47,577 bases of DNA from Candidatus Anoxymicrobiaceae bacterium. GTDB lineage: Bacteria; Actinomycetota; Geothermincolia; Fen-727; Anoxymicrobiaceae. Positions 1,858-35,970 of the stretch are shown one piece after another; the stretch's first letter is position 1; each line of letters begins with the position of its first letter. The position numbers and the translations under genes were made by a program. The notes beneath the pieces are model-generated. The model saw nothing but the letters and a program-made list of their open reading frames with translations. It was not told where the DNA came from and did not search any database. Location of the stretch: positions 1 to 47,577 of the forward strand of contig DATCGY010000151.1 of assembly GCA_036508635.1 (NCBI GenBank), read 5' to 3'.

Positions 1858-1954
1858 TTGTCTCCCGCAGGAAACCGCCGCCGGCCGTCATTGACCGCGG
1901 TGCCCTCGAGGTCGTATAAGAAGGGTGTGGAACCCTACCTTGGAGGCGAGCGAT

Positions 1955-5157: not shown

Positions 5158-6960
5158 CTACCGGAGTTCGTAGGCGTAATAACCGTCAGACTGATAGCGA
5201 GGCACGAGCTCCGGCTTACGCTTGACGCGCTCGAGGATACTTGCGAACCGCCCGTGATCGTACCGCTTGCTCTCGAGGATCACGTACTTGACCTTGAGGC
5301 GCCTCAAATACCGGAGGGCCGCCCGCGATGGAAAATCGTACTCAGCCCTGACGGCATCCTTGTACGAGACCGGCACATAGCCGGAGTACCCGTTGACCAT
5401 CGCTTTCCAGTTGGCGGTGTTGAAGTAGTCGCGCTCGGGCTCCATGCTCACGTAAGCGAAGTCGTCCATGCGATTGACGGACTTGCTGTCGTAAGGCGCA
5501 ACCGGCAAGACGATCGTGGGTGCGTTGCCGTCGACGCCCGCCATCCATCTGAACACAGAGGGGAACTGGGCTTTGGTCAGCATTGGTTTCATCTCTATCC
5601 CGGTAGGGAGGATCTCGACCACCATCAGGATGAGGATCACCACGAGCAGGCCGGCTACCGCGACGCGGTCCAGGTGTCCGTTGAGCTTCGAGCGCAACCA
5701 CTTGACGCCGAATCCAGACAGCACGGCGAGCGACAGTAGGCAGAGGACGAATATCCTGGTCGGAGTGCGTATGGCCTTGAACCCGGGGAAGAATTTGTAC
5801 AGGAACTTGTAAGGCATGAGTATGCTTGAATGGTGCCCGAAGGCGTAGAAAGCCACTCCCAGGCACATCACGCCGGCCAGGAGTAACAGCGTTACGTAGA
5901 ACGCGAGGGCGAACCTGTCGCGCCGGCTTATTCCGCGACTGGACAGCAAGACGATTCCGCCGATGGTCAGGAGGAGTGGCAGCAGGCCCGGGAAAAGTGA
6001 GCGTTCGGACCCGTTACCACGCGTATACGGGTCGGGCCTGAACAGGCTCGTCGCCTTGCCCCAGACCAGGCTCTGGGGAGGAGCTACGAGGAAATCGGTG
6101 ACATCGCCGGAGTAGCTGGCGACCTCGTTGATATCCCTCGAGAAATTAGGGTTGAGCTTCTGCGACTTCAGATATGGAAGGATGAAAGGAGCAAGCACGA
6201 CCCCGATAAGCATAACGGAAGCCACAAAGAAGGCGACCCATCGGTACGCAGCCTTGCGTTCCTCGAGGCTTGCTTTGCGCCGCAGGACCGCCACTATGCG
6301 CTTTCTCTTCATGAGCGCGAGTATGACCAGGTATATCAGCACGGCGAACACCAGGTAGAAGCCGTAGCTCCAGACGCTCCAGAACACCGCTATCGAGAAG
6401 ACGCTGAAAAGGAAAGCATAGACGGGTTTTCGCTTTTCGGTGAAGAGGTGCAGGCACAGGAACGCGAGCGGCAGGAAACCCATCGAGAGCAACTGCATGT
6501 GCGTTATGTGGGCGAGCCTGTACGTCGAGAACCCGAAGACAATGCCACCGGCGAAAGCGGCATACCTGTCCCCGGTAAGGTGCCAGACCAGAAGGTACGC
6601 GCCGAACGAGGCTATAACGAAGCTCATGAGTATCACGAAGTTGAACGCGAGCACGCCGTTGCCGGTCACGGCCAGCACGGGCAGGGCGATGAGAGAGCTC
6701 ATGAATTCGTCGTCAGAGTAGGCTAACGTATACCTGTTCGGGTAGAACAGCGTCGCGTTGAAGAGGTTCAACGGGTTGGTCTCGAGTGAGTGCGCCGTCC
6801 ACGAGAGCACGTAGATGTTGAACATCGTATCGCCCGTGTTCTCGCGCATAGTGTGGTTGTTTGCCTCGGTGACGAGGGGCCTCGTATAGAACAGCGTGAG
6901 AAGCACGAACAGCACTAGCACAAGCACATATATGAGTACGGTTTTGCGTCTGTGGCTCAA
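5158..6960 (-). CDS. Polytopic GT-C-fold membrane glycosyltransferase-like protein
   Basis: The 600-aa protein has more than 10 predicted TM helices. There is an acidic motif in the first outer loop (AYSDDEFM). The soluble C-terminal domain is as seen in ArnT/PMT/YfhO-like enzymes. Confidence 0.6.
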   Translation of the reverse strand: MSHRRKTVLIYVLVLVLFVLLTLFYTRPLVTEANNHTMRENTGDTMFNIYVLSWTAHSLETNPLNLFNATLFYPNRYTLAYSDDEFMSSLIALPVLAVTGNGVLAFNFVILMSFVIASFGAYLLVWHLTGDRYAAFAGGIVFGFSTYRLAHITHMQLLSMGFLPLAFLCLHLFTEKRKPVYAFLFSVFSIAVFWSVWSYGFYLVFAVLIYLVILALMKRKRIVAVLRRKASLEERKAAYRWVAFFVASVMLIGVVLAPFILPYLKSQKLNPNFSRDINEVASYSGDVTDFLVAPPQSLVWGKATSLFRPDPYTRGNGSERSLFPGLLPLLLTIGGIVLLSSRGISRRDRFALAFYVTLLLLAGVMCLGVAFYAFGHHSSILMPYKFLYKFFPGFKAIRTPTRIFVLCLLSLAVLSGFGVKWLRSKLNGHLDRVAVAGLLVVILILMVVEILPTGIEMKPMLTKAQFPSVFRWMAGVDGNAPTIVLPVAPYDSKSVNRMDDFAYVSMEPERDYFNTANWKAMVNGYSGYVPVSYKDAVRAEYDFPSRAALRYLRRLKVKYVILESKRYDHGRFASILERVKRKPELVPRYQSDGYYAYELR

Positions 6961-11116: not shown

Positions 11117-12109
11117 ATGCCGGATGAACGCTACGTAAAGCTCGCCGAAAAGATCGGGATGGGATCGTCGGAGTTAATTCCTCGACTCTTCGAGAAGCTA
11201 GCCAGCGCCGAAGAGGCTGACGTGCTGTTCGACCTTCCCGGTGACGCATCGAGCGTTGCGAAGACGGGCGGCATGGACCCGGAGGCGGCACAGAAGATGC
11301 TCGATGGCCTGTATCGAAAAGGCCTCGTCTTCAAGAAGGCGACCCCCGAAGGAACCCTGTACAGGATGTGCCGCGACCTGATGCAGTTCCACGACGCGAC
11401 GATCTTGTGGCCTGAGGCGCCGAGGGATTACCTCGACCTCTGGAATGAGTTCATGGAGACGGAGTGGCCGGCCTTTTCCGAGCTTGCCGCCAAGTTCCTG
11501 CCAAAGCCGGTGGCTCGCGTGGTACCGGTCAGCGAATCGGTTGACGCGCGGCAGCAGATTCTTGCGTTCGAGGACGTGAGGCAGATAATCGAAACGGAAA
11601 CGCCGGTCGCCGTGACGAACTGCACCTGCCGGCTCACCGCTCAAAAGTGCGACCGTCCAGTCGAGATTTGCCTTCAGGTGGGCAAGGCCGGGGAGTACGC
11701 GATCGATCGTGGCAGCGGGCGCGAGATCGACAAGGAAGAAGCCCTCAGGCTTCTCAAGGAGGCGGAAGACGCCGGACTGGTACACGTGACCATGAACAGG
11801 AACAGTGGCTTTCACTTCATATGCAACTGTTGCAATGACTGCTGCATGACGTTCCCGCTGCTCATCGAACGTCGTTTAAACCTTTGCGATCCGAGCCGCT
11901 TCGCGGCCGAGATCGACACCGGGACGTGCGAGGGATGCGGCAGTTGCGTGGAGAGGTGCTACTTCGGGGCGCTGGAGGTCGACGAGGATGCGGGAGTCTG
12001 CATCGTAGACCCCGAGATGTGCATGGGATGCGGACTCTGCCAATCCGCCTGCCCGTCAGGGGCGCTGAGGCTGGTCCAGGTGAGGGACGCCGACTTCATC
12101 CCAGGATAA
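11117..12109 (+). CDS. Fe-S protein with a C-terminal 2x[4Fe-4S] ferredoxin domain and an additional Cys-rich core
   Basis: The ferredoxin motifs are CEGCGSCVERC and CMGCGLCQSACP. Extra cysteine clusters are CTCRLTAQKC and ICNCCNDCC. The N-terminal ~70 aa look like a winged-helix domain. Confidence 0.7.
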   Translation: MPDERYVKLAEKIGMGSSELIPRLFEKLASAEEADVLFDLPGDASSVAKTGGMDPEAAQKMLDGLYRKGLVFKKATPEGTLYRMCRDLMQFHDATILWPEAPRDYLDLWNEFMETEWPAFSELAAKFLPKPVARVVPVSESVDARQQILAFEDVRQIIETETPVAVTNCTCRLTAQKCDRPVEICLQVGKAGEYAIDRGSGREIDKEEALRLLKEAEDAGLVHVTMNRNSGFHFICNCCNDCCMTFPLLIERRLNLCDPSRFAAEIDTGTCEGCGSCVERCYFGALEVDEDAGVCIVDPEMCMGCGLCQSACPSGALRLVQVRDADFIPG

Positions 12110-12183
12110 AAAAAGGCCACAACCGCAGCCTCGGGAAGGTATCCCGGAGATGACGGGCGAGTTATGACTGGAGGAACAGGGAA

Positions 12184-12384
12184 TTGCCTGTATACGAGTA
12201 TCAATGCACGGTATGCGGGGAGAGGACGCAGCGCCTCCAGGAGGTTGGAGAAGACTCCACGGGCAGGACGTGTCGCACGTGTTGCAAAGGCGTCATCAAG
12301 AAAGTCTTTTCGGTATTCGGGACCCCGGGCGGCAATAGATCAACGCGGTCCTGTTCGCCGAACCCCGAGAGCGGCTTCAGGTGA
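12184..12384 (+). CDS. FmdB-family zinc-ribbon protein
   Basis: The sequence is MPVYEYQCTVCGERT...GRTCRTCCKG, which fits the CxxC..CxxC(C) FmdB signature. The start codon is TTG and there is a GGAGG upstream. Confidence 0.75.
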   Translation: MPVYEYQCTVCGERTQRLQEVGEDSTGRTCRTCCKGVIKKVFSVFGTPGGNRSTRSCSPNPESGFR

Positions 12385-12765
12385 AGTCCCCGTAAGTAAC
12401 TCCCGGTCGGGGAGCACTCCAAAGTTCAACATCAGGCATTATTCGATGTCCTGATGCTATACGTCCCGTGGCTGCTCTCCCTCGTACGATGTCGATTCCC
12501 GCGCCGAGCCGAACGTTGAAGGGCGCTTTTACCTCGAACCTACACAACCGGTGAAAGGGCCGGTCAAATACGAAAGGTGCCCGGTCTGCTGATCGCCGGT
12601 ACTCGAAGAATCTGGCGAATTTCCTTGGGAAACCGCACCGCCTGCACTCTCTCATCATCATCATTACTCCAACCGAACAGCGGCCTTGCTGTAGCGGTGT
12701 GCAGGTAAGCGATGATTATTTATTCTTGTACAGCACGGGCCGTCTGCCCGTCTCGCTCCAATGCT

Positions 12766-12918
12766 CTAGGGAGCTACCTTGGACATGGCTTTCTCGGCCT
12801 TCTTGGTAGCTTTTTCAGCCTGCTTTACCAGCTTGTCGGACTTCTTGGTCGCCTTGCCTGCCTTCTTGTCCAGCTTGTTGGCCTTTTTCTCGAGCTTTTT
12901 GGCCTTGCGTGCCCTCAT
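12766..12918 (-). CDS. Untracked 50-aa Lys/Ala-rich highly basic small protein (MRARKAKKLEKKANKLDKKAGKATKKSDKLVKQAEKATKKAEKAMSKVAP)
   Basis: The ORF runs from ATG 12918 to TAG 12766-12768. An RBS (GGGAGAGG) lies 5 nt upstream, and a near-consensus promoter lies at 13001-13029. 19 of the 50 residues are Lys. Confidence 0.65.
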   Translation of the reverse strand: MRARKAKKLEKKANKLDKKAGKATKKSDKLVKQAEKATKKAEKAMSKVAP

Positions 12919-13000
12919 CGTACCTCTCCCTTCTCCGTACCATAAGCCTCGCTATCGGCTTACGTCGTCTCCCATTGGAAAGAGCAGTTGCCCATCCCAT

Positions 13001-13029
13001 ATCATAACCACATGTAGATAAGATTGTAA
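13001..13029 (-). promoter_or_regulatory. Sigma-70-type promoter for the Lys-rich small gene
   Basis: The minus strand reads TTACAA, a 17-nt spacer, then TATGAT (-35 at 13024-13029, -10 at 13001-13006). Confidence 0.55.
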
Positions 13030-13074
13030 TGATAACAGAGAATCAATCAAGTGGTACAGGAGGTCGTCATCAGA

Positions 13075-13878
13075 GTGAAGCTATTGAAGCGTACGAGGCG
13101 AAAAAGGGCAATGCATGACTCCGGTACAAGCGACGATGCGACGTATCCGTACCGGCAACTTGCGCTCATTTATGACGAGCTGGTCGGGGACTCGGCTTTT
13201 GACTGTTGGCGCGAGAACTTCGACCGCCTCATCGCGCGCTACGGCATAGAGTACGAGGTCGCGGCGGATATCGCCTGCGGAACCGGCCACGCGGTGGCTT
13301 ACCTCATATCCAGGTGCGACAGGGTTTACGGGGTCGACATCTCGCCCGAGATGCTCCAGGTGGCGAGTTTCAGGGTGCGGGCACATGGCGCGACGTTCAT
13401 CGAGCAATCATTCACGGATTTCGAACTCCCCGAAAAAGTCGATCTGCTGACATGCAATTTCGACTCGCTCAACTACCTGTTGAGAGCAGAGGACGTCGCT
13501 GAAGCACTCCGGAGATTCGCGGATTCCCTCAAGCCGGGGGGTTACTGCATTTTCGATATGAACACCACCAGGGAGCTGGAACTCGAATGGGGCACCTCGG
13601 TATTCGTGCACCGGGTGGCTAATGGTTTTACGATATGGGAGTCCGAATGGGACCCGCAGTTGAGAATAAACAGCCTCAGGATGACCAACTTCATCCTGAG
13701 GGAGGACGGTCTGTACGAGAGAAGCGAAGAGATGCATCGCGAGCGCTCATACGACCTGGACTTCCTGATCGACGGACTGCGCGACGCGGGATTCTCGAAC
13801 GTGGAGGCCTACGACGCAAAAGGCCTGGCGGTGGTCAACGAAGATACGAGAAGGGTACATTTCCTCGCGCGCCGTTGA
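13075..13878 (+). CDS. Class I SAM-dependent methyltransferase
   Basis: Motif I is DIACGTGH, followed by LKPGGYCIFD. The start is uncertain: GTG 13075 lies 11 nt after AGGAGG, and ATG 13111 is the alternative. Confidence 0.8.
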   Translation: MKLLKRTRRKRAMHDSGTSDDATYPYRQLALIYDELVGDSAFDCWRENFDRLIARYGIEYEVAADIACGTGHAVAYLISRCDRVYGVDISPEMLQVASFRVRAHGATFIEQSFTDFELPEKVDLLTCNFDSLNYLLRAEDVAEALRRFADSLKPGGYCIFDMNTTRELELEWGTSVFVHRVANGFTIWESEWDPQLRINSLRMTNFILREDGLYERSEEMHRERSYDLDFLIDGLRDAGFSNVEAYDAKGLAVVNEDTRRVHFLARR

Positions 13879-25205: not shown

Positions 25206-25889
25206 ATGACAACTTACGCATTTCGAGATGACGGGTCGACGTACGCCAGGGATCTTCTCGAAGGCCTGGACTTGCTGGGCATACTTGCGGCCCCCGTTCA
25301 TGATACCGACGAGCTCTTCAACGACCATGACGAAGACCCGGCGGCCATCGTGCTCGTGAATCCCTCGTCTCAGATAGCGAGAGAAGTGAAGGACGCCATG
25401 AGCAGGATCGGCGGCTGGGTTGCCCGCATTCCGCTGATAGCCGCGATGGACAGTATGGAACGTCTCGAGGAACAGGTGGCTCTGCGCACCGTGGATGATT
25501 TCCTCGTATACCCCGGTGGCGCCGGTGAGTTGATCGCCCGCGCCAGGGTAATCGTGCTTAGACGCGGCGGCCAGGGGGACGTCGCGAACTTCGGTGCGCT
25601 AGTGATCAACCTCGAGGCCCACCAGGTAATGCTCGAAGGCAAGCCTGTCGATCTGACTTTCAAGGAGTTCGAGCTGTTGAGGACTCTCTCGTCCTCGCCG
25701 GGAAGAGTCTACACGCGCGAGGAGTTACTCAAGACCATCTGGGGGTATGATTACTTCGGTGGAACCCGCACGGTCGACGTCCACGTCCGGCGACTGCGAG
25801 CAAAGATCGAGCGGTCTTTCCGCTACATCGAGACGGTCCACAGTGTCGGATATCGGTTCGCGAGGTCCGGTTGGGGCAAGGATGCCTGA
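25206..25889 (+). CDS. glnR: Actinobacterial-type GlnR: an orphan OmpR-family nitrogen regulator with an atypical receiver domain
   Basis: The C-terminal sequence DLTFKEFELLRTLSSSPGRVYTREELLKTIWGYDYFGGTRTVDVHVRRLRAKIE...VHSVGYRF closely matches my recollection of Streptomyces/Mycobacterium GlnR. The receiver lacks the usual Asp, Thr and Lys residues. Confidence 0.8.
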   Translation: MTTYAFRDDGSTYARDLLEGLDLLGILAAPVHDTDELFNDHDEDPAAIVLVNPSSQIAREVKDAMSRIGGWVARIPLIAAMDSMERLEEQVALRTVDDFLVYPGGAGELIARARVIVLRRGGQGDVANFGALVINLEAHQVMLEGKPVDLTFKEFELLRTLSSSPGRVYTREELLKTIWGYDYFGGTRTVDVHVRRLRAKIERSFRYIETVHSVGYRFARSGWGKDA

Positions 25890-26057: not shown

Positions 26058-27395
26058 ATGGGCGATACCCGCGACATAGAGTATGTCCTCGAAGCGGTGC
26101 GAGAGCATGACGTAAAGTTCATAAGGCTCTGGTTCACCGACATCCTCGGTTTTCTCAAGAGCTTCGCGATCACACGTGAAGAGCTCGAGGAAGCTCTCGA
26201 AGACGGCATGGGTTTCGACGGATCTTCGATCCAGGGCTTCGCCAGGATCGACGAGAGCGACATGATCGCCCAACCGGACCCTTCCACCTTCACTATCCTC
26301 CCGTGGCGTCCCAGCGGGCACAGTGCGGTCGCGCGCATGTTCTGCGACGTACTTGAGCCCGATCGGTCGCCGCACGCCGGTGACCCCCGGTACGTCCTGA
26401 AGAGAAACGTCGAGAAGGCAAAGAAGCTGGGCTACACGTACTACGTCGGCCCGGAGCTCGAGTACTATTACTTCGCGAGCTCTGAAGGCCCACCCGAAGT
26501 GCTCGACAGGGGAGGGTACTTTGACCTCACCCCGCTCGATCTCGCCAGTGACCTCAGGCGCGATACGGTGCTGACCCTCGAGGAGATGGGAATCGGCGTC
26601 GAATACAGCCACCACGAGGTCGGGCCGAGCCAGCACGAGATCGACCTAAGATATTCGGATGCGCTGCAGATGGCTGACAATGCCATGACATACCGCCTGG
26701 TGGTAAAGGAAGTCGCTCTGAAGCATGGAGTCCACGCCACGTTCATGCCGAAGCCGCTGTTCGGTGAGAACGGAAGCGGCATGCACACCCACATGTCACT
26801 GTTCAAGGGAGACAGCAACGCCTTCTTCGACCCGAACGACGAGTATTACCTGACAAAAGAAGCCAGGGGCTTTATCGGTGGCCTGATGAAATACGCCCAG
26901 GAGATCTGCCTGGTTACCAATCAATGGATAAACTCGTACAAGAGGCTTGTGCCGGGTTATGAGGCACCGGTATACCTGTCCTGGGCGCAGCGCAACCGCT
27001 CCGACATGATCAGGGTGCCCGTCTACAAGCCGGGTAAGGAAAAGGCTACGCGCGTCGAGTTCCGGTCGCCGGACCCCGCATGCAACCCGTATCTCGCTTT
27101 CTCAGCGATGCTGGCCGCGGGCCTCAAGGGCATAGAGGACAACATCGATCCGGGCGAGCCTGTCGAGAGGAACATCTACGAGATGAGCGAGGAAGAGCGC
27201 GGGAACCTCGGGATTGAGAGCCTTCCCGAGGACCTCTGGGAGGCCATCAAGCTAGCCGAGAAAAGTGATCTGCTCAGAGAGTGCCTGGGCGACCACGTAT
27301 TCGAGTTGCTCATAAGGGACAAGAAGATCGAGTGGGAGAAGTACAGGGCGGTAGTCACCGAGTACGAGCTCGAAAACTATTTATCGGTCCTGTAA
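26058..27395 (+). CDS. glnA: Glutamine synthetase, type I (short, GSI-alpha-like, 445 aa)
   Basis: The motifs are FTDILGFLKSF, GPELEYYYF, KPLFGENGSGMHTHMSLF and RVPVYKPGKEKATRVEFRSPDPACNPYLAF. An AGGAGG RBS is present. Confidence 0.96.
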   Translation: MGDTRDIEYVLEAVREHDVKFIRLWFTDILGFLKSFAITREELEEALEDGMGFDGSSIQGFARIDESDMIAQPDPSTFTILPWRPSGHSAVARMFCDVLEPDRSPHAGDPRYVLKRNVEKAKKLGYTYYVGPELEYYYFASSEGPPEVLDRGGYFDLTPLDLASDLRRDTVLTLEEMGIGVEYSHHEVGPSQHEIDLRYSDALQMADNAMTYRLVVKEVALKHGVHATFMPKPLFGENGSGMHTHMSLFKGDSNAFFDPNDEYYLTKEARGFIGGLMKYAQEICLVTNQWINSYKRLVPGYEAPVYLSWAQRNRSDMIRVPVYKPGKEKATRVEFRSPDPACNPYLAFSAMLAAGLKGIEDNIDPGEPVERNIYEMSEEERGNLGIESLPEDLWEAIKLAEKSDLLRECLGDHVFELLIRDKKIEWEKYRAVVTEYELENYLSVL

Positions 27396-27419
27396 CTTCT
27401 GACGAACAATTTAAAACGG

Positions 27420-27459
27420 GCGCCCTGCCTGGCTCAAAGGTGGGGCGCTTGCTTTAATT
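27420..27459 (+). terminator. Likely intrinsic terminator after glnA
   Basis: The sequence gcgccctgcct-ggctcaa-aggtggggcgc forms an 11-bp stem with two wobble pairs, followed by ttgctttaatt. Confidence 0.5.
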
Positions 27460-27499: not shown

Positions 27500-27528
27500 T
27501 TGAACGGTAATATCATGGATGCTAGAAT
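27500..27528 (+). promoter_or_regulatory. Sigma-70-type promoter for the hdrBC-like / split-gltB operon
   Basis: TTGAAC (27500-27505), a 17-nt spacer, then TAGAAT (27523-27528). Confidence 0.5.
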
Positions 27529-27573: not shown

Positions 27574-28911
27574 GTGAACGATTACATCTTCTTCTGGGGT
27601 TGCACCATACCCGGCAGGTTTCCTTTCCTCGAGAAGTCACTCCGCCTGGTACTCGATGAGCTGGGCGTACGGTTTCGCGAGATAGAGGGATTCACGTGCT
27701 GCCCCGAGAAATTTCTGGTCGAGACCCTCTCCGAAGAGGCGTGGTACCTTACAGCGGCGAGAAACCTGGCTCTAGCCGAGAAGAACGGCGGCGATCTGCT
27801 GGTTGCCTGCAACGGATGCTACTCCACTTTTCGCTCGGTTATAACCGCATTCAGCTCTTCCGCCGCGTTGAGGCGAGAGGTTGCCGCGAAGCTCGAGGAG
27901 ATAGGGCTCGAGTACAACTTCAGATCTTCTGTGTACCATATAGTGCAGGTGCTGCACGACAAGATAGGTCCCGACGTGATCGCGCGCCGCGTGGAGCTTG
28001 GAATGGAGGGGATGAAGATAGGAGTGCACGTCGGATGCCAGGTGCTGCGCCCGTCGCCTACGGTGCGCATCGACGACCCGCTTCACCCGGTCAAGCTCGA
28101 CAGGCTGGTGGAGTGCCTCGGCGCCACCAGCATAGATTACGAGTCGAAGCTGATGTGCTGCGGCGAGGCGCTCGGTCGAGCCGGCAACGCCGATAAATCG
28201 ATGGAGAGCGCGAGGCTCAAGCTGCTGGAGCTGGAGCAGAACGAGGCGGATGCTATGGTGGTGGTCTGCCCAGCGTGCTTCCAGCAGTTCGAGACTCAAC
28301 AGATGGTCATCGGCAAGCAGATCGAGAATTTGAGCATCCCCGTGTTCTATTACACGGAACTGCTGGGGCTCGCCCTCGGGTTCACTCCCGGGGAGATGGG
28401 CCTGGACATGCACCGGGTGCCCGTTCAGCCTTTCCTGGACAGGTGGGAATACCTCCGACGCATCCGGGAGTCCGTACCGGCGGAGTTCGACCTCAAGTCT
28501 ATGACCACGTGCGTCAACTGCGGGTCGTGCTCCAACGATTGCCCGGTCGTACAGGTTGACGACGAGTTCGACCCGCACGCCGTGCTCGAGCGCATCCTGA
28601 AAGGCGATGCGGACGGCGTGGTCGCCGGAGACGAGATATGGAAGTGCCTGGAGTGCGGGACCTGCATCGAGATGTGCCCCAACAACTTCGGGATGATGAA
28701 GGTGTTCAAAGAGGCTAAGCGCATGGCTCTCGCCAGGGGCATCGCGCCGGCCGAGACGAGCCAGGGCATCGAGATGTTCAAGAGCGCCGGAGTACTCGGC
28801 AAGTCCAGGGAGCGGGCAAGGGCGAAGCTCGGCCTGGCCCCCGTGGCTGAGCCTGGCAGCGAAGAACTTGCGCGTCTCCTCGAGAGCACGTTGAAACGTA
28901 AAGACGAATAG
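27574..28911 (+). CDS. HdrB-HdrC-like fusion: two CCG (Cys-rich) domains followed by a 2x[4Fe-4S] ferredoxin domain
   Basis: CCG domain 1 is FFWGCT..FTCCPEK..ACNGC. CCG domain 2 is HVGCQ..LMCCGEALG..VCPACF. The C-terminal motifs are CVNCGSCSNDCP and CLECGTCIEMCP. Confidence 0.75.
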   Translation: MNDYIFFWGCTIPGRFPFLEKSLRLVLDELGVRFREIEGFTCCPEKFLVETLSEEAWYLTAARNLALAEKNGGDLLVACNGCYSTFRSVITAFSSSAALRREVAAKLEEIGLEYNFRSSVYHIVQVLHDKIGPDVIARRVELGMEGMKIGVHVGCQVLRPSPTVRIDDPLHPVKLDRLVECLGATSIDYESKLMCCGEALGRAGNADKSMESARLKLLELEQNEADAMVVVCPACFQQFETQQMVIGKQIENLSIPVFYYTELLGLALGFTPGEMGLDMHRVPVQPFLDRWEYLRRIRESVPAEFDLKSMTTCVNCGSCSNDCPVVQVDDEFDPHAVLERILKGDADGVVAGDEIWKCLECGTCIEMCPNNFGMMKVFKEAKRMALARGIAPAETSQGIEMFKSAGVLGKSRERARAKLGLAPVAEPGSEELARLLESTLKRKDE

Positions 28912-28963: not shown

Positions 28964-30079
28964 TTGGCGTTCGGGGATCAGTATGCCAAATGGAGGGTAG
29001 ACACAGAGAAAGTGCCCGGCGCGTGCGGCCTGTCGGGTGTGATGAGCCGCGACGGCAAGCGCTTCGGCGGTGACGTAATCATAGAATCCATGAGGGTCCT
29101 CCACGACCGTGGCAACGGGCTCGGAGGCGGGTTCGCCGGCTACGGCATCTACCCGGACTACCGCGACCACTACGCGATGCATATCATGTTCGAGGATGCG
29201 GCAGGGAGGGCGCTCTGCGAGGAGTTGCTCGAAGCCAGTCTCGAGATCGATGTCGGGGAGGAGCTCCCCACCAGGGCACACCCGGGCATTATCGACGCGC
29301 CGGACCTGCGCCGCTACTTCGTAAAACCCAGGCGAGAGGTCGTCGCGGCCGAGGCGATCGAGCCTGACGATTTTATGGTCAAGCTGGTCATGAAGATCAA
29401 CAAGACCGTTCCGGGCACGTTCGTCTTTTCCAGCGGCAGGAACATGGGAGTGTTCAAGGCCGTCGGTTTCGCCGAGGACGTCGGTGAGTTCTTCAAGCTT
29501 CCGGAGTACGACGGGTATATCTGGACCGGGCACGGCAGGTTCCCTACGAACACGCCTGGATGGTGGGGGGGAGCGCACCCGTTCAATATCCTCGACTGGA
29601 CGGTCGTACACAACGGCGAGATATCATCGTACGGTATCAACAAGCGATACCTCGAGATGTTCGGGTATGAGTGCACGCTTCTGACCGACACCGAGGTTAT
29701 GGCTTACCTGTTCGACCTCCTCGTGCGCAAGCACAAGCTCCCGCTCGAACTGGCGTGCCGCGTCATCGCCGCGCCGTTCTGGAAAGATATCGACTACGAA
29801 GGAAAGACAGAGCGGCACGACCTGGATGAGGCACTGCGCATCACGTACGCAAGCGCGCTGGTCAACGGTCCGTTCGCGGTTGTGATCGGGTTCTCGCGCG
29901 GCATGGTGGGGCTGAACGACAGGATCAAGCTAAGGCCACTTGTCGCCGCTTACAAGGACGATCTACTGTACGTCTCCAGTGAGGAATCGGCGATACGGCA
30001 GGTTTGCCCCCGGCCTGACCGGGTCTGGGCTCCGAACGCGGGCCAGCCCGTCATAGGGGAATTGAGGGGTGATGTGTGA
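28964..30079 (+). CDS. Glutamate synthase amidotransferase subunit (the GltB class-II GATase domain as a separate polypeptide)
   Basis: The Ntn-type Cys-Gly (PGACGLSGVM) follows a short propeptide. RGNGLGGGFAGYG, GHGRFPTNTPG and HNGEISSYG are also present. The TTG start lies 10 nt after GGAGGG. Confidence 0.8.
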   Translation: MAFGDQYAKWRVDTEKVPGACGLSGVMSRDGKRFGGDVIIESMRVLHDRGNGLGGGFAGYGIYPDYRDHYAMHIMFEDAAGRALCEELLEASLEIDVGEELPTRAHPGIIDAPDLRRYFVKPRREVVAAEAIEPDDFMVKLVMKINKTVPGTFVFSSGRNMGVFKAVGFAEDVGEFFKLPEYDGYIWTGHGRFPTNTPGWWGGAHPFNILDWTVVHNGEISSYGINKRYLEMFGYECTLLTDTEVMAYLFDLLVRKHKLPLELACRVIAAPFWKDIDYEGKTERHDLDEALRITYASALVNGPFAVVIGFSRGMVGLNDRIKLRPLVAAYKDDLLYVSSEESAIRQVCPRPDRVWAPNAGQPVIGELRGDV

Positions 30080-31581
30080 TGCCCGGCAACATGGTAACCA
30101 GTGAGTTCCAGGTCATGGTTGACCAGGAGAAATGCCGGAAGTGCAAGAGATGCGTACTCAACTGCGGGTTCGGGACGCTTGAGTTCAAGGACAGGGTGAT
30201 ACCCGACTCGTCAAAGTGCGTAGCCTGCCACAGGTGTGTCGTTTTCTGCCCCGAGGAGGCTATAACCGTGACGCGCAACCCGCTGGCTTTCAGCGAGCAT
30301 GCGTCGTGGGCGGTAGACAGGCGCAAGGACGTCTGGAAGCAGGCCGAGAGCTCGGGCATGCTTCTGACAGGCATGGGCAACGACCTGCCGTGGCTCAACG
30401 TTTTCGACCACCTGCTGATCGATGCCTGCCAGGTCACCAACCCATCCATCGACCCGCTTCGCGAGCCGATGGAGCTTCGCACTTTTCTCGGCAGAAAGCC
30501 TGACCGGGTCGAGGTCGAGCCCGGCGATGGCGGATACAGGCTGAACACGACGGTCGGCAACAACATCAAGCTGGACGTCCCGATGATGTTCAGCGGTATG
30601 TCTTACGGCTCCGTGAGCCTAAACGTCCACAAGGCGCTCGCCCTTGCTGCCGAGAAGCTCGGTACGGTCATGAATACGGGCGAGGGTGGCCTTCACGAGG
30701 AGCTGTACCCGCTCGCGGACCATATCATTGTGCAGTGCGCGTCGGGTCGGTTCGGGGTCCATTCCGAGTACCTGAACAAGGGTGTCGCGGTGGAGATCAA
30801 GGTCGGCCAGGGTGCGAAGCCGGGAATCGGCGGACACCTGCCCGGCGAGAAGATCGGCCGTGAGGTCTCGAGCACGCGCATGATACCCATCGGAACAGAC
30901 GCACTGTCTCCGGCGCCACATCACGACATCTACTCGATCGAGGATCTGCGACAGTTGATCTACGCCATCAAAGAAGCTACCGGGTACAAGCCGGTGTCGG
31001 TCAAGATAGCGACCGTTCACAACGTCGCCGCTATCGCCAGCGGCATAGCACGGGCTGGAGCTGACATTATCTATCTCGACGGTTTCCGGGGAGGTACTGG
31101 TGCGAGCCCGGCCGTCATTCGCGACCATGTCGGTATCCCTCTCGAGATCGCGCTTGCCGTGGTCGACCAGCAGCTTCGCAGCGAAGGGATAAGGAACTGG
31201 GTCTCGATAATAGCCGCTGGCGGCATACGCTCCAGCGCCGACGTGGCCAAGGCGATCGCGCTGGGAGCCGATGCAGTGGGCATCGGCACCGCCGCGCTCA
31301 TTGCGATGGGCTGCCGTTTATGTCAGAAATGCTACACGGGTAACTGCTCGTGGGGGATCGCGACCCAGAAGCCCGAACTTACAGGCAGGCTCGACCCTGA
31401 TTGGGGAGCCGAGCGCCTCGTGAACCTGATAAACGCATGGGCGCTCGAGCTCAAAGAGGTCCTCGGCGCGCTCGGAGTGAACGCCATCGAATCTCTTCGG
31501 GGTAATCGCGAGCGGCTGAGAAGCCTGGGGCTCGACGAGATGACCACGGAGATACTCGACGTAAAGCCGGCCGGAAGGTGA
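30079..31581 (+). CDS. Glutamate synthase FMN/[3Fe-4S] central-domain subunit with an N-terminal 2x[4Fe-4S] ferredoxin module (archaeal type)
   Basis: The N-terminal motifs are CRKCKRCVLNC and CVACHRCVVFCP. The core motifs are KVGQGAKPGIGGHLPG, SPAPHHDIYSIEDL and the cluster cysteines CRLCQKCYTGNC. Its ATG overlaps the upstream stop codon (TGATG). Confidence 0.88.
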   Translation: MPGNMVTSEFQVMVDQEKCRKCKRCVLNCGFGTLEFKDRVIPDSSKCVACHRCVVFCPEEAITVTRNPLAFSEHASWAVDRRKDVWKQAESSGMLLTGMGNDLPWLNVFDHLLIDACQVTNPSIDPLREPMELRTFLGRKPDRVEVEPGDGGYRLNTTVGNNIKLDVPMMFSGMSYGSVSLNVHKALALAAEKLGTVMNTGEGGLHEELYPLADHIIVQCASGRFGVHSEYLNKGVAVEIKVGQGAKPGIGGHLPGEKIGREVSSTRMIPIGTDALSPAPHHDIYSIEDLRQLIYAIKEATGYKPVSVKIATVHNVAAIASGIARAGADIIYLDGFRGGTGASPAVIRDHVGIPLEIALAVVDQQLRSEGIRNWVSIIAAGGIRSSADVAKAIALGADAVGIGTAALIAMGCRLCQKCYTGNCSWGIATQKPELTGRLDPDWGAERLVNLINAWALELKEVLGALGVNAIESLRGNRERLRSLGLDEMTTEILDVKPAGR

Positions 31582-31593
31582 GAGAGAGGGAGT

Positions 31594-32370
31594 ATGGCGA
31601 AGGCTGCCACTAGAAATAAAAGCGAGCTTACCACGGTCACGATCGATGCGACCGGGATCTACTATAAGCAACTCAACGAACAGATACGCGACCTCATAGC
31701 GGAAGGCTGCACCGAGATAGTGCTGGATGGCGTAAACGGCCAGCGGTATATCGGCGATGGCCTGAGCGTGGACGGTGTCACAATAGTGATAAACGGGGTC
31801 CCGGGCAACGACCTCGGCGTGTTCATGGATGGGCCTGAAGTCATCGTCAACGACAACGCGCAGGATGGTGTCGGAAACACCATGAACGCCGGCAAGATAG
31901 TGGTGAAAGGCCACGCGGGTGACGTGATCGGCTACGGGATGAGGGGCGGAAAGATCTTCGTCCTTGACAACATCGGCTACCGCGTCGGCATCCACATGAA
32001 ATCGTTCAAGGAGCAGGTGCCCGTCATAGTCGCCGGCGGGTGTGCGGGAGATTTCTTCGGCGAGTACATGGCCGGAGGGCTGCTCGTGCTCCTCGGTCTC
32101 AACGCGGGCGAGACCCCAATGGTCGGCAGCTACGTCGGGACCGGAATGCACGGTGGGGCCATATTCCTGCGGGGCGAGGTAACCGAGCATCAGCTCGGCA
32201 AGGAGGTCAGGGTCTTTCCACTGGACGACGAGGACACCTGCATGCTTGAGAGCCTGCTCGAGGAATTCGCCGCGGACACAGGGGCGGATATTTCGGGCGT
32301 GTCGACCGGGCAGTTTGTAAAACTTCAGCCGTTTTCGCACCGCCCATACGGCAACATGTACTGTTATTGA
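31594..32370 (+). CDS. Glutamate synthase GXGXG (GltB C-terminal beta-helix) domain subunit
   Basis: GxxGxxxG beta-helix turns repeat through the protein: GQRYIGDG, GVPGNDLG, GHAGDVIGYGMRGG, and AGGCAGDFFGEYMAGG. Confidence 0.85.
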   Translation: MAKAATRNKSELTTVTIDATGIYYKQLNEQIRDLIAEGCTEIVLDGVNGQRYIGDGLSVDGVTIVINGVPGNDLGVFMDGPEVIVNDNAQDGVGNTMNAGKIVVKGHAGDVIGYGMRGGKIFVLDNIGYRVGIHMKSFKEQVPVIVAGGCAGDFFGEYMAGGLLVLLGLNAGETPMVGSYVGTGMHGGAIFLRGEVTEHQLGKEVRVFPLDDEDTCMLESLLEEFAADTGADISGVSTGQFVKLQPFSHRPYGNMYCY

Positions 32371-32474: not shown

Positions 32475-33170
32475 ATGAACGCAAAGGTGAAACTGTCCCC
32501 TTCTGTACTCAACGCGGATTTCGCGAACCTGGGAAAGGCCATACGCGACGTCGAGCCTTACGCCGACTATATCCACCTCGACGTCATGGACGGCCATTTC
32601 GTCCCCAACATCACTTTCGGGCCGATGGTGGTCGAGACTATAAAGCGGATCACGGATGTCCCGCTCGACTGCCACCTGATGATCTATAACCCTCCGGAAT
32701 GGGTCGAGGCCTTCGCGGACGCGGGAGCCGACCGGATCTCGTTTCATGTACGGTCGTGCCGGGACGCCGAAAGCGTTATCCGTGCCATAAAGGCGTTCGG
32801 TGCTTCACCGGGACTCGCCGTGAGCCCCGAGGTACCGCTGTTCGAGCTGAAGCCGTTTCTCGGCATGATCGACTTCGTTGTGTTGATGTGCGTTTATCCC
32901 GGGTTCGGAGGGCAGAAGCTGATGCCCGAGATGCTCAACCGCGTAGGCGCGATAAAGAGGGACGCCGCCGAGATGGGAGTTTTCGTCGAGGTTGAAGTCG
33001 ACGGAGGGGTAAAGACCGACAATCTCGAGCAGGTGCTCCAGGCCGGCACCGACACCGTCGTGGTGGGCTCGTCGATATTCGCCAGCCCCGACGTTTCCGC
33101 GGCCGCGGAAGAGATAAGGAGGGTCCTCGACTCCACCAGCGCCGCTCTCAGAGGTTGTACTTCTTCTTGA
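32475..33170 (+). CDS. rpe: Ribulose-phosphate 3-epimerase
   Basis: The motifs are IHLDVMDGHFVPNITFG, HLM, VNPGFGGQK-like (VYPGFGGQK) and VDGGV. Confidence 0.95.
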   Translation: MNAKVKLSPSVLNADFANLGKAIRDVEPYADYIHLDVMDGHFVPNITFGPMVVETIKRITDVPLDCHLMIYNPPEWVEAFADAGADRISFHVRSCRDAESVIRAIKAFGASPGLAVSPEVPLFELKPFLGMIDFVVLMCVYPGFGGQKLMPEMLNRVGAIKRDAAEMGVFVEVEVDGGVKTDNLEQVLQAGTDTVVVGSSIFASPDVSAAAEEIRRVLDSTSAALRGCTSS

Positions 33171-33720
33171 GGCTCTTCGCCTGGCTCTGAAGTTCCCCCG
33201 TCGTGATGCCCTGCTTTGCCAGGGAGTCCGCGAATTCCGTGACGAACGACTGAAACGCAATGGGATCGAACGATGTGCCCGACAGTTTCTCCAGCGATTG
33301 GTTGAGGAATGTCTTCAACTGGTTGATGCCTGCGACGTTGGCGTCTATTATCCTGACCTTCAGGTCGGCGTATTTCTTGTACTCCGGGACGTCTTTCAGG
33401 CTGTCGACCTTGAGGTATTCCGCCCTGGCTGAAGACGCCTTGCGCAGCATCCTGTCCGCCTGTGATTTCAAGTCGTCCGCGGTGTCCTTGAAACCGGCAG
33501 CATCCGGTGTCTTCCCGGATGTGATGTCGTGGTAGAGGGAATTGTAGAGGTTCTCCATGTCGTTGCCCAGCGTCTTGCCCTCGCTATCCAGGACGGCCAT
33601 CGACTTGTCGCCCAGTTGTATCGACGACTTGGCCTTGCCGGAATCGCCGCCGCACCCGCAGAGGGATACACCCAGGAAGACCACTACTAGTGCCAGCGCT
33701 ATGGTGGCGGTTCTCTTCAT
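33148..33720 (-). CDS. Helical lipoprotein, paralog 1
   Basis: The signal peptide plus lipobox is LGVSLCGCGGD. It shares the core VPEYKKYADLKVRI with the neighbouring paralog. It overlaps the rpe 3' end by 23 nt (convergent). Confidence 0.65.
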   Translation of the reverse strand: MKRTATIALALVVVFLGVSLCGCGGDSGKAKSSIQLGDKSMAVLDSEGKTLGNDMENLYNSLYHDITSGKTPDAAGFKDTADDLKSQADRMLRKASSARAEYLKVDSLKDVPEYKKYADLKVRIIDANVAGINQLKTFLNQSLEKLSGTSFDPIAFQSFVTEFADSLAKQGITTGELQSQAKSLKKKYNL

Positions 33721-33893: not shown

Positions 33894-34433
33894 TTAGAGC
33901 TTCTTGTCAGACTTCAGCTGCTGTGCCTGCTGGTCAAGCCTGGAGTACTCCTGCCCAAGCTTGTTGATTGTATCGCTCGAGGCTTTTGAAGCACTTTGAA
34001 GGCCGGAGAGATCTCCAGAATTTACCATCGATAGAAATTGATTGAAATACGAGTCAATGCTCTTGACCAGTTGTTGGAACAAGTCCATCGCCTTAATCTC
34101 AAGGTCGGCGTACTTCACGTAGTCAGGTACGCGGTGGAGACTCTTGATCTTCTGGAAATCGGCCGCGGCTTGATCTGCAGTTTTGGAAAGATTGGCGGCG
34201 GTCGTCTTCGCCTTGTTGACTGCGGCAACAGCCGCAGTTGGATCAGTTATGCTGGATAGCGCGGTCATCTCATCGCCAAAAGCACTTGTGTCGGACTTGA
34301 GTTTCTCAACCTGGGCGTTGCCCTCCTTCATGTATTGCTTCGCCTGTTTGGTGTCTCCACCGCAGCCGACAAGCAACGCAGATCCCGCCAGAACAACCAG
34401 GCTCACCAGGAAAATTGTCAGCGTTTTCTTCAT
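33894..34433 (-). CDS. Helical lipoprotein, paralog 2
   Basis: The start is moved to ATG 34433 (MKKTLTIFLVSLVVLAGSALLVGCGGD), preceded by a GAGAGGAG RBS. It shares the core VPDYVKYADLEIKA with paralog 1. Confidence 0.7.
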   Translation of the reverse strand: MKKTLTIFLVSLVVLAGSALLVGCGGDTKQAKQYMKEGNAQVEKLKSDTSAFGDEMTALSSITDPTAAVAAVNKAKTTAANLSKTADQAAADFQKIKSLHRVPDYVKYADLEIKAMDLFQQLVKSIDSYFNQFLSMVNSGDLSGLQSASKASSDTINKLGQEYSRLDQQAQQLKSDKKL

Positions 34434-34590
34434 GCCAGCTCCTCTCGCGTTCACCTCTGCCCAATATGTGAAAGGCTTGCGGCGGACGCCAAGCCTGCCG
34501 AACATCACTTCCAGCCGCCTTAGATGTTAACTTTCGAGTCCTGGAGAGGCAATACAGTCCCGCTTATTTTGGGGCTCATGACATGCGTTA

Positions 34591-34618
34591 TTGACACTGC
34601 ACCTGCGTTTGTTATGAT
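34591..34618 (+). promoter_or_regulatory. Sigma-70-type promoter of the rib operon
   Basis: TTGACA (34591-34596), a 16-nt spacer, then TATGAT (34613-34618). Confidence 0.65.
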
Positions 34619-34627
34619 GGAAAAAAC

Positions 34628-34742
34628 ATAGTCTTCGGGACAGGGTGAAATCCCCGACCGGCGGTATAGCCCGCGAGCTCCTCTGGAGCAGACCCGGTGA
34701 GATTCCGGGGCCGACGGTAACAGTCCGGATGGGAGAAGATAT
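34628..34742 (+). promoter_or_regulatory. FMN riboswitch (RFN element) aptamer
   Basis: The sequence tcttcgggacagggtgaaatccccgaccggcggtatagcccgcgagc...ggtgagattccggggccgacggtaacagtccggatgggagaaga matches the RFN consensus, including P1 closure (tcttc/gaaga). Confidence 0.95.
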
Positions 34743-34761
34743 CTGACCGTTGCGGTCAGTT

Positions 34762-34787
34762 GCGCCAGCTTCTCCTGGCGCTTTTTT
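34762..34787 (+). terminator. Riboswitch expression-platform terminator
   Basis: The hairpin gcgccag-cttctc-ctggcgc is followed by TTTTTT. It ends 32 nt before the ribD ATG. Confidence 0.85.
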
Positions 34788-34818
34788 GATCCCATCGACC
34801 CTGTCCCCAGGTGCAAAC

Positions 34819-35970
34819 ATGGATTTTTTTCAGAGCGGAGAGAGAAATATAGCGGGAATGCGCCCCCCGGACGCCGGATCGGTGGACGAGCGGATGATGA
34901 TGCGCGCGCTCGAACTGGCCGAGAAAGGAAGGGGCATGACGTCTCCCAATCCCGTCGTAGGTGCGGTTATCGCAAGGGGCGACCAGGTTATCTCCGAGGG
35001 ATACCACGAGAGGGTCGGAGGGCCGCATGCCGAGATAAATGCGCTCGACAGCGCTCCGGGCGGCCTCCGCGGGGCCACCATGTATGTCACGCTCGAGCCG
35101 TGCTCTCACCAGGGCAGAACGCCGCCGTGCGCTCCGAGAGTGGCGGATTCGGGCATTGAGAGGGTCGTGATAGCCGTTCGCGATCCAAACCCGCAGGTCG
35201 CCGGCGGGGGAGAGGCGCTCCTCAAAGATCACGGCGTCGAGGTCTCTGTAGGCCTCTTCGGCCGGTTCGCCCTCAGGCAGAATGAAGAGTACCTGAAATG
35301 GGTGAGGACTCGCAGGCCTTTCGTGACATTGAAGATGGCGATGAGCCTCGACGGCAAGGTGGCCACGAGGACGGGCGATTCCAAGTGGATATCTTCGGAA
35401 ATATCCAGGGCCGATGTTCAGCGCGCCAGGGCGGCAAGCGACGCGGTCATGGTCGGTATCGGAACCGTGATGAGCGACAATCCCCGACTGAACGTGCGGG
35501 ATTTAGAGGGAGTCCGACAGCCACTGAGGGTCGTCGTTGACAGCTTTGCCAGGACGCCGGTCGGGAGCAATGTCGCTGATAGCTCGATGGCGCCGACGCT
35601 CCTGGCCGTCTCCGAGAATGCTCCTGGGGAGAGTATCCGGGCACTCGAAGCAACAGGTGTCGAGCTCATGAGGCTCGACGACGCCGGGAAGGTCGACCTT
35701 GGAGCCCTATTGGAGCTGCTCGGCGAGCGTGGAGTGACTTCTTTGCTCGTTGAGGGAGGACCGGAACTTGCTCGAGGTGTGTGGCAGGCAGGGTTGGTCG
35801 ATAAGTTCGTGTTCTACTTTGCTCCCAAGATAGTGGGCGGGTGCGAGGCGCCTGGGCCGGTCGGTGGGACCGGGGTTGCCTGCATGAAGGAGGCCGGGCC
35901 GCTCACGATAGATGCTGCTTTCGAGATGGGTCCAGATTTAAAGGTGGTCGCGTACCCGGGGGGAGAGTGA
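34819..35970 (+). CDS. ribD: Bifunctional diaminohydroxyphosphoribosylaminopyrimidine deaminase / 5-amino-6-(5-phosphoribosylamino)uracil reductase
   Basis: The motifs are SPNPVVGAVI, HAEINAL and LEPCSHQGRTPPC, followed by the reductase domain. The track start of 34750 would span the terminator, so it was rejected. Confidence 0.93.
   Translation: MDFFQSGERNIAGMRPPDAGSVDERMMMRALELAEKGRGMTSPNPVVGAVIARGDQVISEGYHERVGGPHAEINALDSAPGGLRGATMYVTLEPCSHQGRTPPCAPRVADSGIERVVIAVRDPNPQVAGGGEALLKDHGVEVSVGLFGRFALRQNEEYLKWVRTRRPFVTLKMAMSLDGKVATRTGDSKWISSEISRADVQRARAASDAVMVGIGTVMSDNPRLNVRDLEGVRQPLRVVVDSFARTPVGSNVADSSMAPTLLAVSENAPGESIRALEATGVELMRLDDAGKVDLGALLELLGERGVTSLLVEGGPELARGVWQAGLVDKFVFYFAPKIVGGCEAPGPVGGTGVACMKEAGPLTIDAAFEMGPDLKVVAYPGGE

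Follow-up and report, generated by a model that had tools for sequence, protein, structure and literature searches.

We describe here a fusion of the heterodisulfide reductase subunits HdrB and HdrC that is encoded directly upstream of a split glutamate synthase (GOGAT) in a bacterium of the Candidatus Anoxymicrobiaceae. The analysed stretch, contig DATCGY010000151.1 of assembly GCA_036508635.1 (47,577 nucleotides (nt), forward strand), is called the window throughout. Directly observed are the domain content of the fusion protein HdrBC, its intact cofactor motifs, the operon-like arrangement of its gene with the three GOGAT genes and the conservation of this linkage in other genomes. Judged from sequence and gene context, HdrBC belongs to the split GOGAT as a subunit with a high degree of probability. 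That its immediate electron donor is a dithiol is, taken alone, an evenly balanced proposition, while the overall model that we favour, in which HdrBC acts as a dithiol-fed electron-input (fourth) subunit of the enzyme, stands somewhat better than even. By analogy, HdrBC would most likely fill the role that GltD has in NADPH-dependent GOGAT, or that the FrhB-like subunit has in the proposed F420-dependent GOGAT. The result would be a glutamate synthase whose input subunit is of a type not described before, and in which three well-studied cofactor systems appear to be unexpectedly linked.

HdrBC is an intact fusion of HdrB with an HdrC-type domain

The fusion gene and its predicted cluster sites are located as follows.

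27574 to 28911, + strand: hdrBC fusion gene, 445 aa, GTG start; proposed electron-input subunit of the split glutamate synthase (Pfam, NCBIfam, AlphaFold2/Foldseek)
27601 to 27819, + strand: first CCG motif, C10-x31-C42C43-x35-C79xxC82, predicted noncubane [4Fe-4S] site; aligns to solved HdrB
28036 to 28278, + strand: second CCG motif, C155-x39-C195C196-x35-C232xxC235, predicted second noncubane cluster site; aligns to solved HdrB
28510 to 28677, + strand: HdrC-type ferredoxin domain, C313xxC316xxC319xxxC323 and C358xxC361xxC364xxxC368, 2x[4Fe-4S] (Pfam Fer4_8)

Pfam assigns two CCG stretches (PF02754, E = 1e-24) to the 445-aa open reading frame (ORF) and a Fer4_8 dicluster to residues 310-371 (E = 8e-12). 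The HdrB model TIGR03288 aligns end to end with residues 4-289 at 248.8 bits, below its equivalog cut-off of 345.15, and NF041780 scores 117.6 bits against a cut-off of 450. The HdrC model TIGR03290 covers residues 311-426 with 53.3 bits (cut-off 160), and both CxxCxxCxxxC motifs are present. Among solved structures, the N-terminal 290 residues match the HdrB of five methanogen Hdr complexes (E = 1e-60 to 1e-52) and the C-terminal part matches HdrC chains, including 9sfi_E and 5odc_C (E = 1e-13 to 1e-14). An AlphaFold2 model built with 55 homologues reached a predicted local distance difference test (pLDDT) score of 91.9, and Foldseek superimposed it on HdrB chains with template-modelling (TM) scores of 0.91-0.93 at a root-mean-square deviation of about 2 A, and on HdrC chains with a TM score of about 0.6. 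Sequence and fold identify the protein as an HdrB with an HdrC-type domain behind it, in the order that the original prediction had read from the letters alone.

The spacing of the two CCG motifs agrees with the HdrB pattern CX31-39CCX35-36CXXC, and all 18 cluster-binding cysteines are invariant in the 55 homologues. Since the cysteine patterns are complete and invariant, HdrBC is predicted to have the full ligand set for two noncubane and two cubane [4Fe-4S] clusters. Motif 1 reads 'TCCPEK' and motif 2 'MCCGEALG...CPAC', as had been described before; the idea that CCP in place of CCG is an anomaly had to be abandoned, because the solved methanogen HdrB 8rvu_b likewise has 'CCP' in motif 1, making it the family norm. 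In the same way, the inverted domain order CCG-CCG-Fer4 is correct, but it is not a one-off inversion and marks a family of several hundred members. Its members share this architecture at 440-470 aa. A search of 5.8 billion proteins returned 819 matches at E <= 1e-10, of which some are labelled 'heterodisulfide reductase B/C' by their sources. A library clustered at 50% identity contains about 28 full-length B-to-C clusters reaching down to 34% identity, below which stand-alone HdrB dominates.

Profiles of other CCG-domain proteins match HdrBC as well. The NCBIfam model of the SdhE membrane anchor (NF042965) scores 111 bits over residues 3-279, and those of TfrB, GlpC and GlcF cover the Fer4 part. 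The SdhE, GlpC and GlcF matches speak for an alternative in which menaquinol is the electron source and the CCG domains serve as a membrane tether, by analogy with proposals for GlpC and for SdhE of type-E succinate/methylmenaquinol:fumarate reductases, so that GOGAT would be quinol-dependent; Actinomycetota, Desulfotomaculum-type Bacillota and Methanoperedens generally make menaquinone, and its quinol has roughly the same potential as the GOGAT couple. However, the HdrB score lies far above that of SdhE (249 against 111 bits) and the fold is that of HdrB (TM 0.92). Little driving force would be at hand, and the genes for dihydrolipoyl dehydrogenase (Lpd), a lipoyl carrier and LipB/LipA in the Bacillota operons described below would be left unexplained. 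A quinol-dependent enzyme is, in our view, very improbable.

The gene heads a split glutamate synthase operon

The genes and signals around hdrBC in the window are the following.

28964 to 30079, + strand: GOGAT glutaminase subunit, class-II amidotransferase domain of GltB (Pfam GATase_2, GATase_6, GATase_7)
30076 to 31581, + strand: GOGAT synthase subunit, N-terminal 2x[4Fe-4S] ferredoxin domain (Fer4, residues 14-64) and flavin mononucleotide (FMN)/Fe-S Glu_synthase domain (Pfam, E = 3e-139)
31594 to 32370, + strand: GOGAT GXGXG (C-terminal beta-helix) subunit (Pfam GXGXG, E = 4e-33)
27500 to 27528, + strand: sigma-70-type predicted promoter of the hdrBC-GOGAT operon, TTGAAC-17-(TG)cTAGAAT, with the TG of an extended -10 (consensus scan)
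27417 to 27451, + strand: terminator-like GC-rich hairpin 3' of glnA, 14-bp stem (consensus scan); arms kept in related loci
26058 to 27395, + strand: glnA, type I glutamine synthetase, nitrogen-assimilation context (TIGR00653, 534 bits against a cut-off of 429; Pfam Gln-synt_N, Gln-synt_C)
25206 to 25889, + strand: OmpR-type winged-helix regulator (Pfam Trans_reg_C only, residues 145-218; NCBIfam matches under all cut-offs)

Three GltB domains lie on three consecutive ORFs, which is the gene layout of a split (archaeal-type) glutamate synthase. As had been proposed, hdrBC is the first gene of this operon: only 52 nt separate its stop from the next gene (TTG start at 28964), and the consensus scan of the window, from which all promoter and terminator calls derive, places no terminator-like site in this gap. 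The synthase itself looks functional, because its N-terminal nucleophile cysteine and all Fe-S cysteines are conserved. In the glutaminase subunit the nucleophile Cys21 follows a propeptide of about 20 aa and is conserved in 55/55 homologues; in the FMN subunit the same holds (55/55) for C399/C402/C405/C410 and for all eight cysteines of the ferredoxin domain.

The promoter expected at 27500 to 27528 is found exactly there. When the spacer of the window is aligned with those of nine related loci, its -35 box and extended -10 (TGCTAnAAT), together with the ribosome-binding site and the GTG start, show little or no variation across the 10 Geothermincolia-type sequences, where other spacer DNA is about 40% conserved. 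The site is probably real, because the boxes are conserved while the surrounding spacer is not, which is good comparative support. Rfam finds no riboswitch or leader in the spacer between glnA and hdrBC.

No receiver domain was detected in the regulator upstream of glnA. Its homologues adjoin glnA in Geothermincolia and Coriobacteriia loci, and it is reminiscent of the orphan actinobacterial GlnR.

None of the scanned ORFs of the 47.5-kb window encodes GltD, FrhB, HdrA or MvhD, nor Lpd or a lipoyl protein. The missing gltD had been noted before and agrees with our scan; all such statements on the host of the window are limited to these ORFs.

Linkage to glutamate synthase is conserved across phyla

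A relatives scan of 185,579 species genomes yielded 273 relatives, and the best 80 of these 273 loci were fetched and read by tblastn with the window's proteins. hdrBC adjoins split GOGAT genes in 77 of the 80 loci, with the GATase gene directly downstream in 73 and another order in 4. The remaining three are uninformative, since two contigs end at hdrBC and the third (L036) starts just upstream of it, at LipA. Linked loci stem from Geothermincolia/Anoxymicrobiaceae, Coriobacteriia, Thermoleophilia, several Bacillota, a Nitrospirae metagenome-assembled genome (MAG) and 'Deltaproteobacteria' MAGs, and among the archaea from about a dozen Candidatus Methanoperedens genomes. The nearest relative of the window is a fen Actinomycetota MAG (95%), and a Candidatus Geothermincolia MAG is about 79% identical. 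Divergent fusions keep the linkage too: P0136 (34% identity), P0139 (34%, on an archaeal contig), P0154, all within 34-35%, and P0107, where the genes overlap by 11 nt. Thus, the neighbourhood check called for by the original prediction speaks strongly in its favour, and the observation is confirmed as real and far beyond chance. Because this neighbourhood is conserved across phyla, an electron-input role is the best reading of HdrBC.

Often just -1 to 5 nt separate hdrBC from the GATase gene, and in other loci the two overlap by about 10-14 nt. Pairwise identities across 55 loci correlate between HdrBC and the three GOGAT subunits with r = 0.93-0.98, and among the GOGAT subunits themselves with 0.90-0.94. 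This is the pattern expected of one co-inherited complex, and we infer that the four proteins associate physically. Many loci also carry glnA, an OmpR-type regulator or an ANTAR regulator nearby.

One could instead imagine HdrBC as a subunit that senses redox state or thiols and regulates or protects the enzyme, or as an unrelated enzyme co-regulated under nitrogen limitation, with GOGAT drawing on free ferredoxin. A 2x[4Fe-4S] domain within the FMN subunit itself could take electrons from soluble ferredoxin, and split GOGATs without HdrBC exist in methanogens (PMC3087415; in part general background). However, a near-obligate linkage (77/80), translational coupling and co-divergence at r >= 0.93 are typical of the subunits of one complex, and every cofactor ligand of HdrBC is invariant. 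We therefore consider a regulatory or unrelated function improbable.

Downstream of the closest stand-alone HdrB (P0142, 42% identity), HdrC is encoded by a gene of its own, and the gene of the FMN subunit comes next. The B-to-C fusion probably arose from such an adjacent hdrB-hdrC pair, because the unfused pair directly precedes the FMN-subunit gene. A fusion in the opposite order, C to B (P0151), shows no GOGAT linkage.

Two loci deviate in their layout. At L096 (8001 to 10856) hdrB (304 aa) overlaps hdrC (141 aa) and only the GOGAT FMN subunit follows; neither an amidotransferase nor a GXGXG gene adjoins them, and about 5 kb upstream there is a gene for glutamate dehydrogenase, so that this locus could represent an ammonia-dependent or otherwise reduced form. 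L088, whose HdrBC is 34% identical, carries a 362-aa HEAT-repeat protein (11999 to 13087) between the FMN-subunit and GXGXG genes and a second HEAT-repeat gene upstream. The species labels of two third-party assemblies look unreliable: L002 (DYIU01000002.1, labelled 'Acidimicrobium ferrooxidans') is syntenic with Geothermincolia-type MAGs and L014 (DYIV01000002.1, labelled 'Slackia heliotrinireducens') with Coriobacteriia-type MAGs.

Lipoate genes accompany the Bacillota operons

In Bacillota loci, the gene for Lpd (TIGR01350, 563 bits, cut-off 409) lies either between the GOGAT genes and hdrBC or next to them. Often LipB (TIGR00214, above cut-off) and LipA (LIAS_N and Radical_SAM) are added, and a stand-alone E2-type lipoyl domain of 75-77 aa is encoded immediately upstream of hdrBC. 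Precomputed annotations give two arrangements, an eight-gene string GATase-FMN-GXGXG-Lpd-LipB-LipA-lipoyl carrier-HdrBC (the Eubacteriales/Peptococcaceae type) and the order ANTAR-glnA-GXGXG-Lpd-carrier-HdrBC-GATase-FMN. L036 encodes, directly 5' of hdrBC, a LipA that carries the lipoyl domain as a fusion. Because these operons carry Lpd, the lipoyl carrier and often LipB/LipA, the immediate donor in Bacillota is probably a dithiol, and NAD(P)H would probably be the ultimate reductant. Of the earlier proposal of a non-NAD(P)H electron-input module, the input role thus stands on the conserved linkage, whereas 'non-NAD(P)H' is only half right: it would apply to the immediate donor, but at least in Bacillota NAD(P)H may still be the ultimate reductant through Lpd and lipoate. 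The quinone and ferredoxin pools that the proposal also named would be less probable sources. We tentatively suggest a fifth class of GOGAT donor, dithiol (lipoyl-protein)-dependent, which in Bacillota would run, with all its parts in a single operon, as a relay from NAD(P)H through Lpd and the 75-aa carrier to HdrBC and GOGAT, with LipB/LipA maturing the carrier.

Glycine-cleavage genes downstream in L018 and L036 were considered and rejected; the genes that the two loci share look, by eye, like thiamine and other housekeeping genes. L018 belongs to Desulfotomaculum copahuensis, which is in culture, as is Coriobacteriaceae EMTCatB1 (L073), another carrier of the fusion.

The main competing explanation for electron delivery is that HdrBC is a mere Fe-S adaptor to a flavoprotein encoded elsewhere (HdrA/MvhD-like, NfnB/GltD-like or a hydrogenase), possibly a bifurcating one. 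The donor would then be ferredoxin, NAD(P)H, H2 or formate, and the HdrB site would serve as a wire or as a disulfide-reducing co-acceptor. In its favour, canonical HdrBC always partners HdrA in the solved complexes that were matched, and the window carries no donor gene among its scanned ORFs. Bacterial Hdr-like complexes such as MetFV-HdrABC and Flx-Hdr also have HdrB sites with unknown substrates. Against it, gltD, frhB, hdrA and mvhD do not recur in the gene-family clustering of the 80 loci and are absent from the Pfam-annotated loci, which include contigs of 0.1-4.6 Mb. The additional genes that are seen (Lpd, the lipoyl carrier, LipB and LipA) point to a dithiol donor and are left unexplained by an adaptor. 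We rate such an adaptor as unlikely.

Several points weigh against dithiol feeding and have to be set beside the evidence for it. The case is drawn from gene context and sequence, and HdrB would have to work in the thiol-oxidising direction as part of a biosynthetic enzyme. Proteins without known thiol chemistry can have complete CCG motifs as well, and SdhE of MFR, LutA and GlpC all matched HdrBC. Hidden Markov models built from the Bacillota genes find no lipoyl carrier, Lpd or LipA in the window or in the actinobacterial and archaeal loci. The neighbours of hdrBC-GOGAT in Methanoperedens are unrelated housekeeping genes, with no donor gene among them. The donor in the host of the window is a guess, because neither the window nor the other actinobacterial and archaeal loci have a thiol-system gene nearby. 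Lpd beside GOGAT in Bacillota could serve some other purpose. Moreover, the stand-alone lipoyl carrier family (75-110 aa) is also found without HdrBC or GOGAT, and the notion that the carrier is specific to HdrBC-GOGAT was rejected. In Candidatus Brocadia it stands alone; in an Omnitrophica MAG an Lpd-LipB-carrier string follows genes of the aconitase, isocitrate dehydrogenase and malate dehydrogenase type; and in Desulfolucanica intricata the carrier adjoins DsbD-like and thioredoxin-like genes. Lipoyl carriers outside GOGAT loci were recorded at these positions.

L094, 8021 to 10240: lipoyl carrier outside a GOGAT locus
L095, 9178 to 11698: lipoyl carrier outside a GOGAT locus
L093, 10001 to 10336: lipoyl carrier outside a GOGAT locus

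Given these varied contexts, the family looks like a generic module, NADH to Lpd to dithiol carrier, that can be plugged into different acceptors.

Proposed path of electrons into the enzyme

For the dithiol-fed subunit that we favour, we infer from the arrangement of cofactors and genes which way the electrons flow and what donates them. The two noncubane [4Fe-4S] clusters of the HdrB part would oxidise a dithiol to its disulfide, which is the heterodisulfide reductase reaction in reverse. By way of the HdrC domain and its two [4Fe-4S] clusters, electrons would then reach the 2x[4Fe-4S] ferredoxin domain with which the FMN subunit begins, and from there by the Fe-S cluster next to FMN the FMN itself. 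FMN would finally reduce 2-iminoglutarate, formed from 2-oxoglutarate and glutamine-derived ammonia. In Bacillota the donor would most likely be the 75-aa lipoylated carrier, kept reduced by the operon-encoded Lpd with NAD(P)H. Hosts that have only the four-gene core (the window's Geothermincolia-type actinobacterium, Coriobacteriia and Methanoperedens) would take electrons from a thiol donor encoded elsewhere, for example a housekeeping lipoyl protein, a low-molecular-weight thiol or, in Methanoperedens, the thiols of coenzyme M (CoM-SH) and coenzyme B (CoB-SH).

The couple of 2-oxoglutarate plus NH4+ and glutamate lies at about -140 mV, and glutamine hydrolysis lifts the effective acceptor potential to about -70 mV. 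Dithiols range from -140 to -290 mV. Since these potentials lie below that of the acceptor, dithiols could drive GOGAT.

Relation to known systems

The methanogen HdrABC complexes (PDB 5ODC, 7BKB, 8RVU) share with HdrBC the HdrB fold at about 34% identity, the canonical CCG spacing including 'CCP', and an HdrC-type 2x[4Fe-4S] domain with its C-terminal extension. In HdrBC, however, B and C form a single chain, HdrA and MvhD are not found nearby and the partner genes encode GOGAT subunits. The loop after the second CCG reads 'CCGEALG' here and 'CCGAGGG' in the methanogens, and the proposed electron flow is opposite. To our knowledge, an actinobacterial host is not expected to make CoM or CoB. 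With scores below the cut-offs, no HdrA found in the window and a bacterial host, HdrBC is probably not a CoB-CoM heterodisulfide reductase.

NADPH-dependent GOGAT (GltBD) catalyses the same chemistry with the same chain logic, in which a reductase subunit feeds two [4Fe-4S] clusters, an Fe-S cluster near FMN and FMN. Here, in contrast, three separate proteins make up GltB, the FMN subunit and not GltD carries the 2x[4Fe-4S] domain, and gltD is not found in the window or in the Pfam-annotated loci.

In thiol:fumarate reductase (TfrAB), a CCG-domain subunit draws electrons from thiols for a reductive reaction. TfrAB and the fusions of the HdrD/GlcF/GlpC type likewise couple a CCG-domain Fe-S protein to a flavoenzyme, but they carry the ferredoxin module at the N-terminus, whereas HdrBC has the order CCG-CCG-Fer4. 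Because of this opposite domain order, HdrBC is not of the HdrD/GlcF/GlpC type. As for the lipoyl side, the mycobacterial Lpd-lipoyl-AhpD relay uses NADH, Lpd and a lipoyl domain as a general dithiol reductant.

The closest architectural and functional analogue would be the F420-dependent GOGAT proposed for methanogens and anaerobic methanotrophic archaea (ANME), which consists of three GltB-domain subunits and an FrhB-like 'subunit 4' (PMC3087415; PMC9012536). Both have the same split core and one extra Fe-S electron-input subunit. In the F420 enzyme this is FrhB, which oxidises F420H2 and carries flavin adenine dinucleotide (FAD) and [4Fe-4S], while here it would be HdrB plus HdrC; FrhB is not found among the scanned ORFs of the window.

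In the sHdr system, Hdr-like proteins work with lipoate-binding proteins (LbpA) (PMC6067878), a precedent for pairing an Hdr-like Fe-S protein with a lipoylated carrier. Together with thiol:fumarate reductase it comes closest in chemistry. The sHdr system serves sulfur oxidation and needs HdrA, two HdrBC pairs, a GcvH-like LbpA and sulfur transferases (hdrC1B1-A-hyp-C2B2), and none of these sHdr-LbpA partners is present in the window or in related loci. By comparison, the carrier described here is an E2-type lipoyl domain, found in the Bacillota versions only, and the acceptor would be GOGAT. A search of the searchable full-text literature, which leaves most subscription journals uncovered, gave no description of an HdrBC-GOGAT or lipoyl-GOGAT association.

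Implications for ammonium assimilation

Split GOGATs are the main ammonium-assimilation route in many uncultured anaerobes, among them Actinomycetota from peat and fens, Coriobacteriia from the gut and the subsurface, Bacillota that reduce sulfate or live syntrophically, and the nitrate-dependent methanotroph Methanoperedens. Outside the F420-type proposal, it has never been settled what supplies the 'archaeal-type' split enzyme with electrons. A near-obligate HdrBC partner offers a concrete four-protein complex, and the Bacillota operons offer a specific, testable donor chain of Lpd and lipoyl carrier. Should the dithiol-fed model hold, a textbook enzyme would gain a new donor class, and the widespread annotation 'heterodisulfide reductase B/C' would gain a function in organisms without CoM/CoB. 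The chemistry of the HdrB noncubane clusters would take on a biosynthetic, thiol-oxidising role beyond methanogenesis and sulfur metabolism, and lipoate would newly serve to carry electrons for nitrogen assimilation in Actinomycetota, Bacillota and Methanoperedens. Reconstructions of metabolism in which these genes are assigned to an Hdr of energy metabolism would then need correcting.

Other features of the window

The gene at 1925 to 4927 (+ strand) encodes a 1000-aa glycyl-radical enzyme (PFL-like and Gly_radical) with about 200 extra N-terminal residues that have no Pfam match. About 6 kb downstream, the 330-aa product of 11117 to 12109 (+ strand) matches only in a C-terminal 2x[4Fe-4S] domain, and its N-terminal 260 residues are unmatched. 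A 600-aa ORF at 5158 to 6960 (- strand) has no Pfam match at E <= 1e-4 and overlaps a 198-aa ORF on the + strand; the status of either as a real gene is doubtful.

An FMN riboswitch (RF00050, 111.8 bits against a gathering score of 66.2) lies at 34627 to 34744 (+ strand), overlapped by the spurious listed ORFs at 34520 to 34820. It stands directly 5' of the ORF at 34750 to 35970 and of three more same-strand ORFs that extend to 38416, by eye a ribD-ribE-ribBA-ribH operon. Between rpe and this riboflavin operon sit two adjacent paralogues of about 190-200 aa (33148 to 33720 and 33894 to 34508, both - strand), which have a signal peptide and, by eye, a lipobox-like '(L/V)xGCGG', and which share motifs such as 'VP(E/D)Y(K/V)KYADL'.

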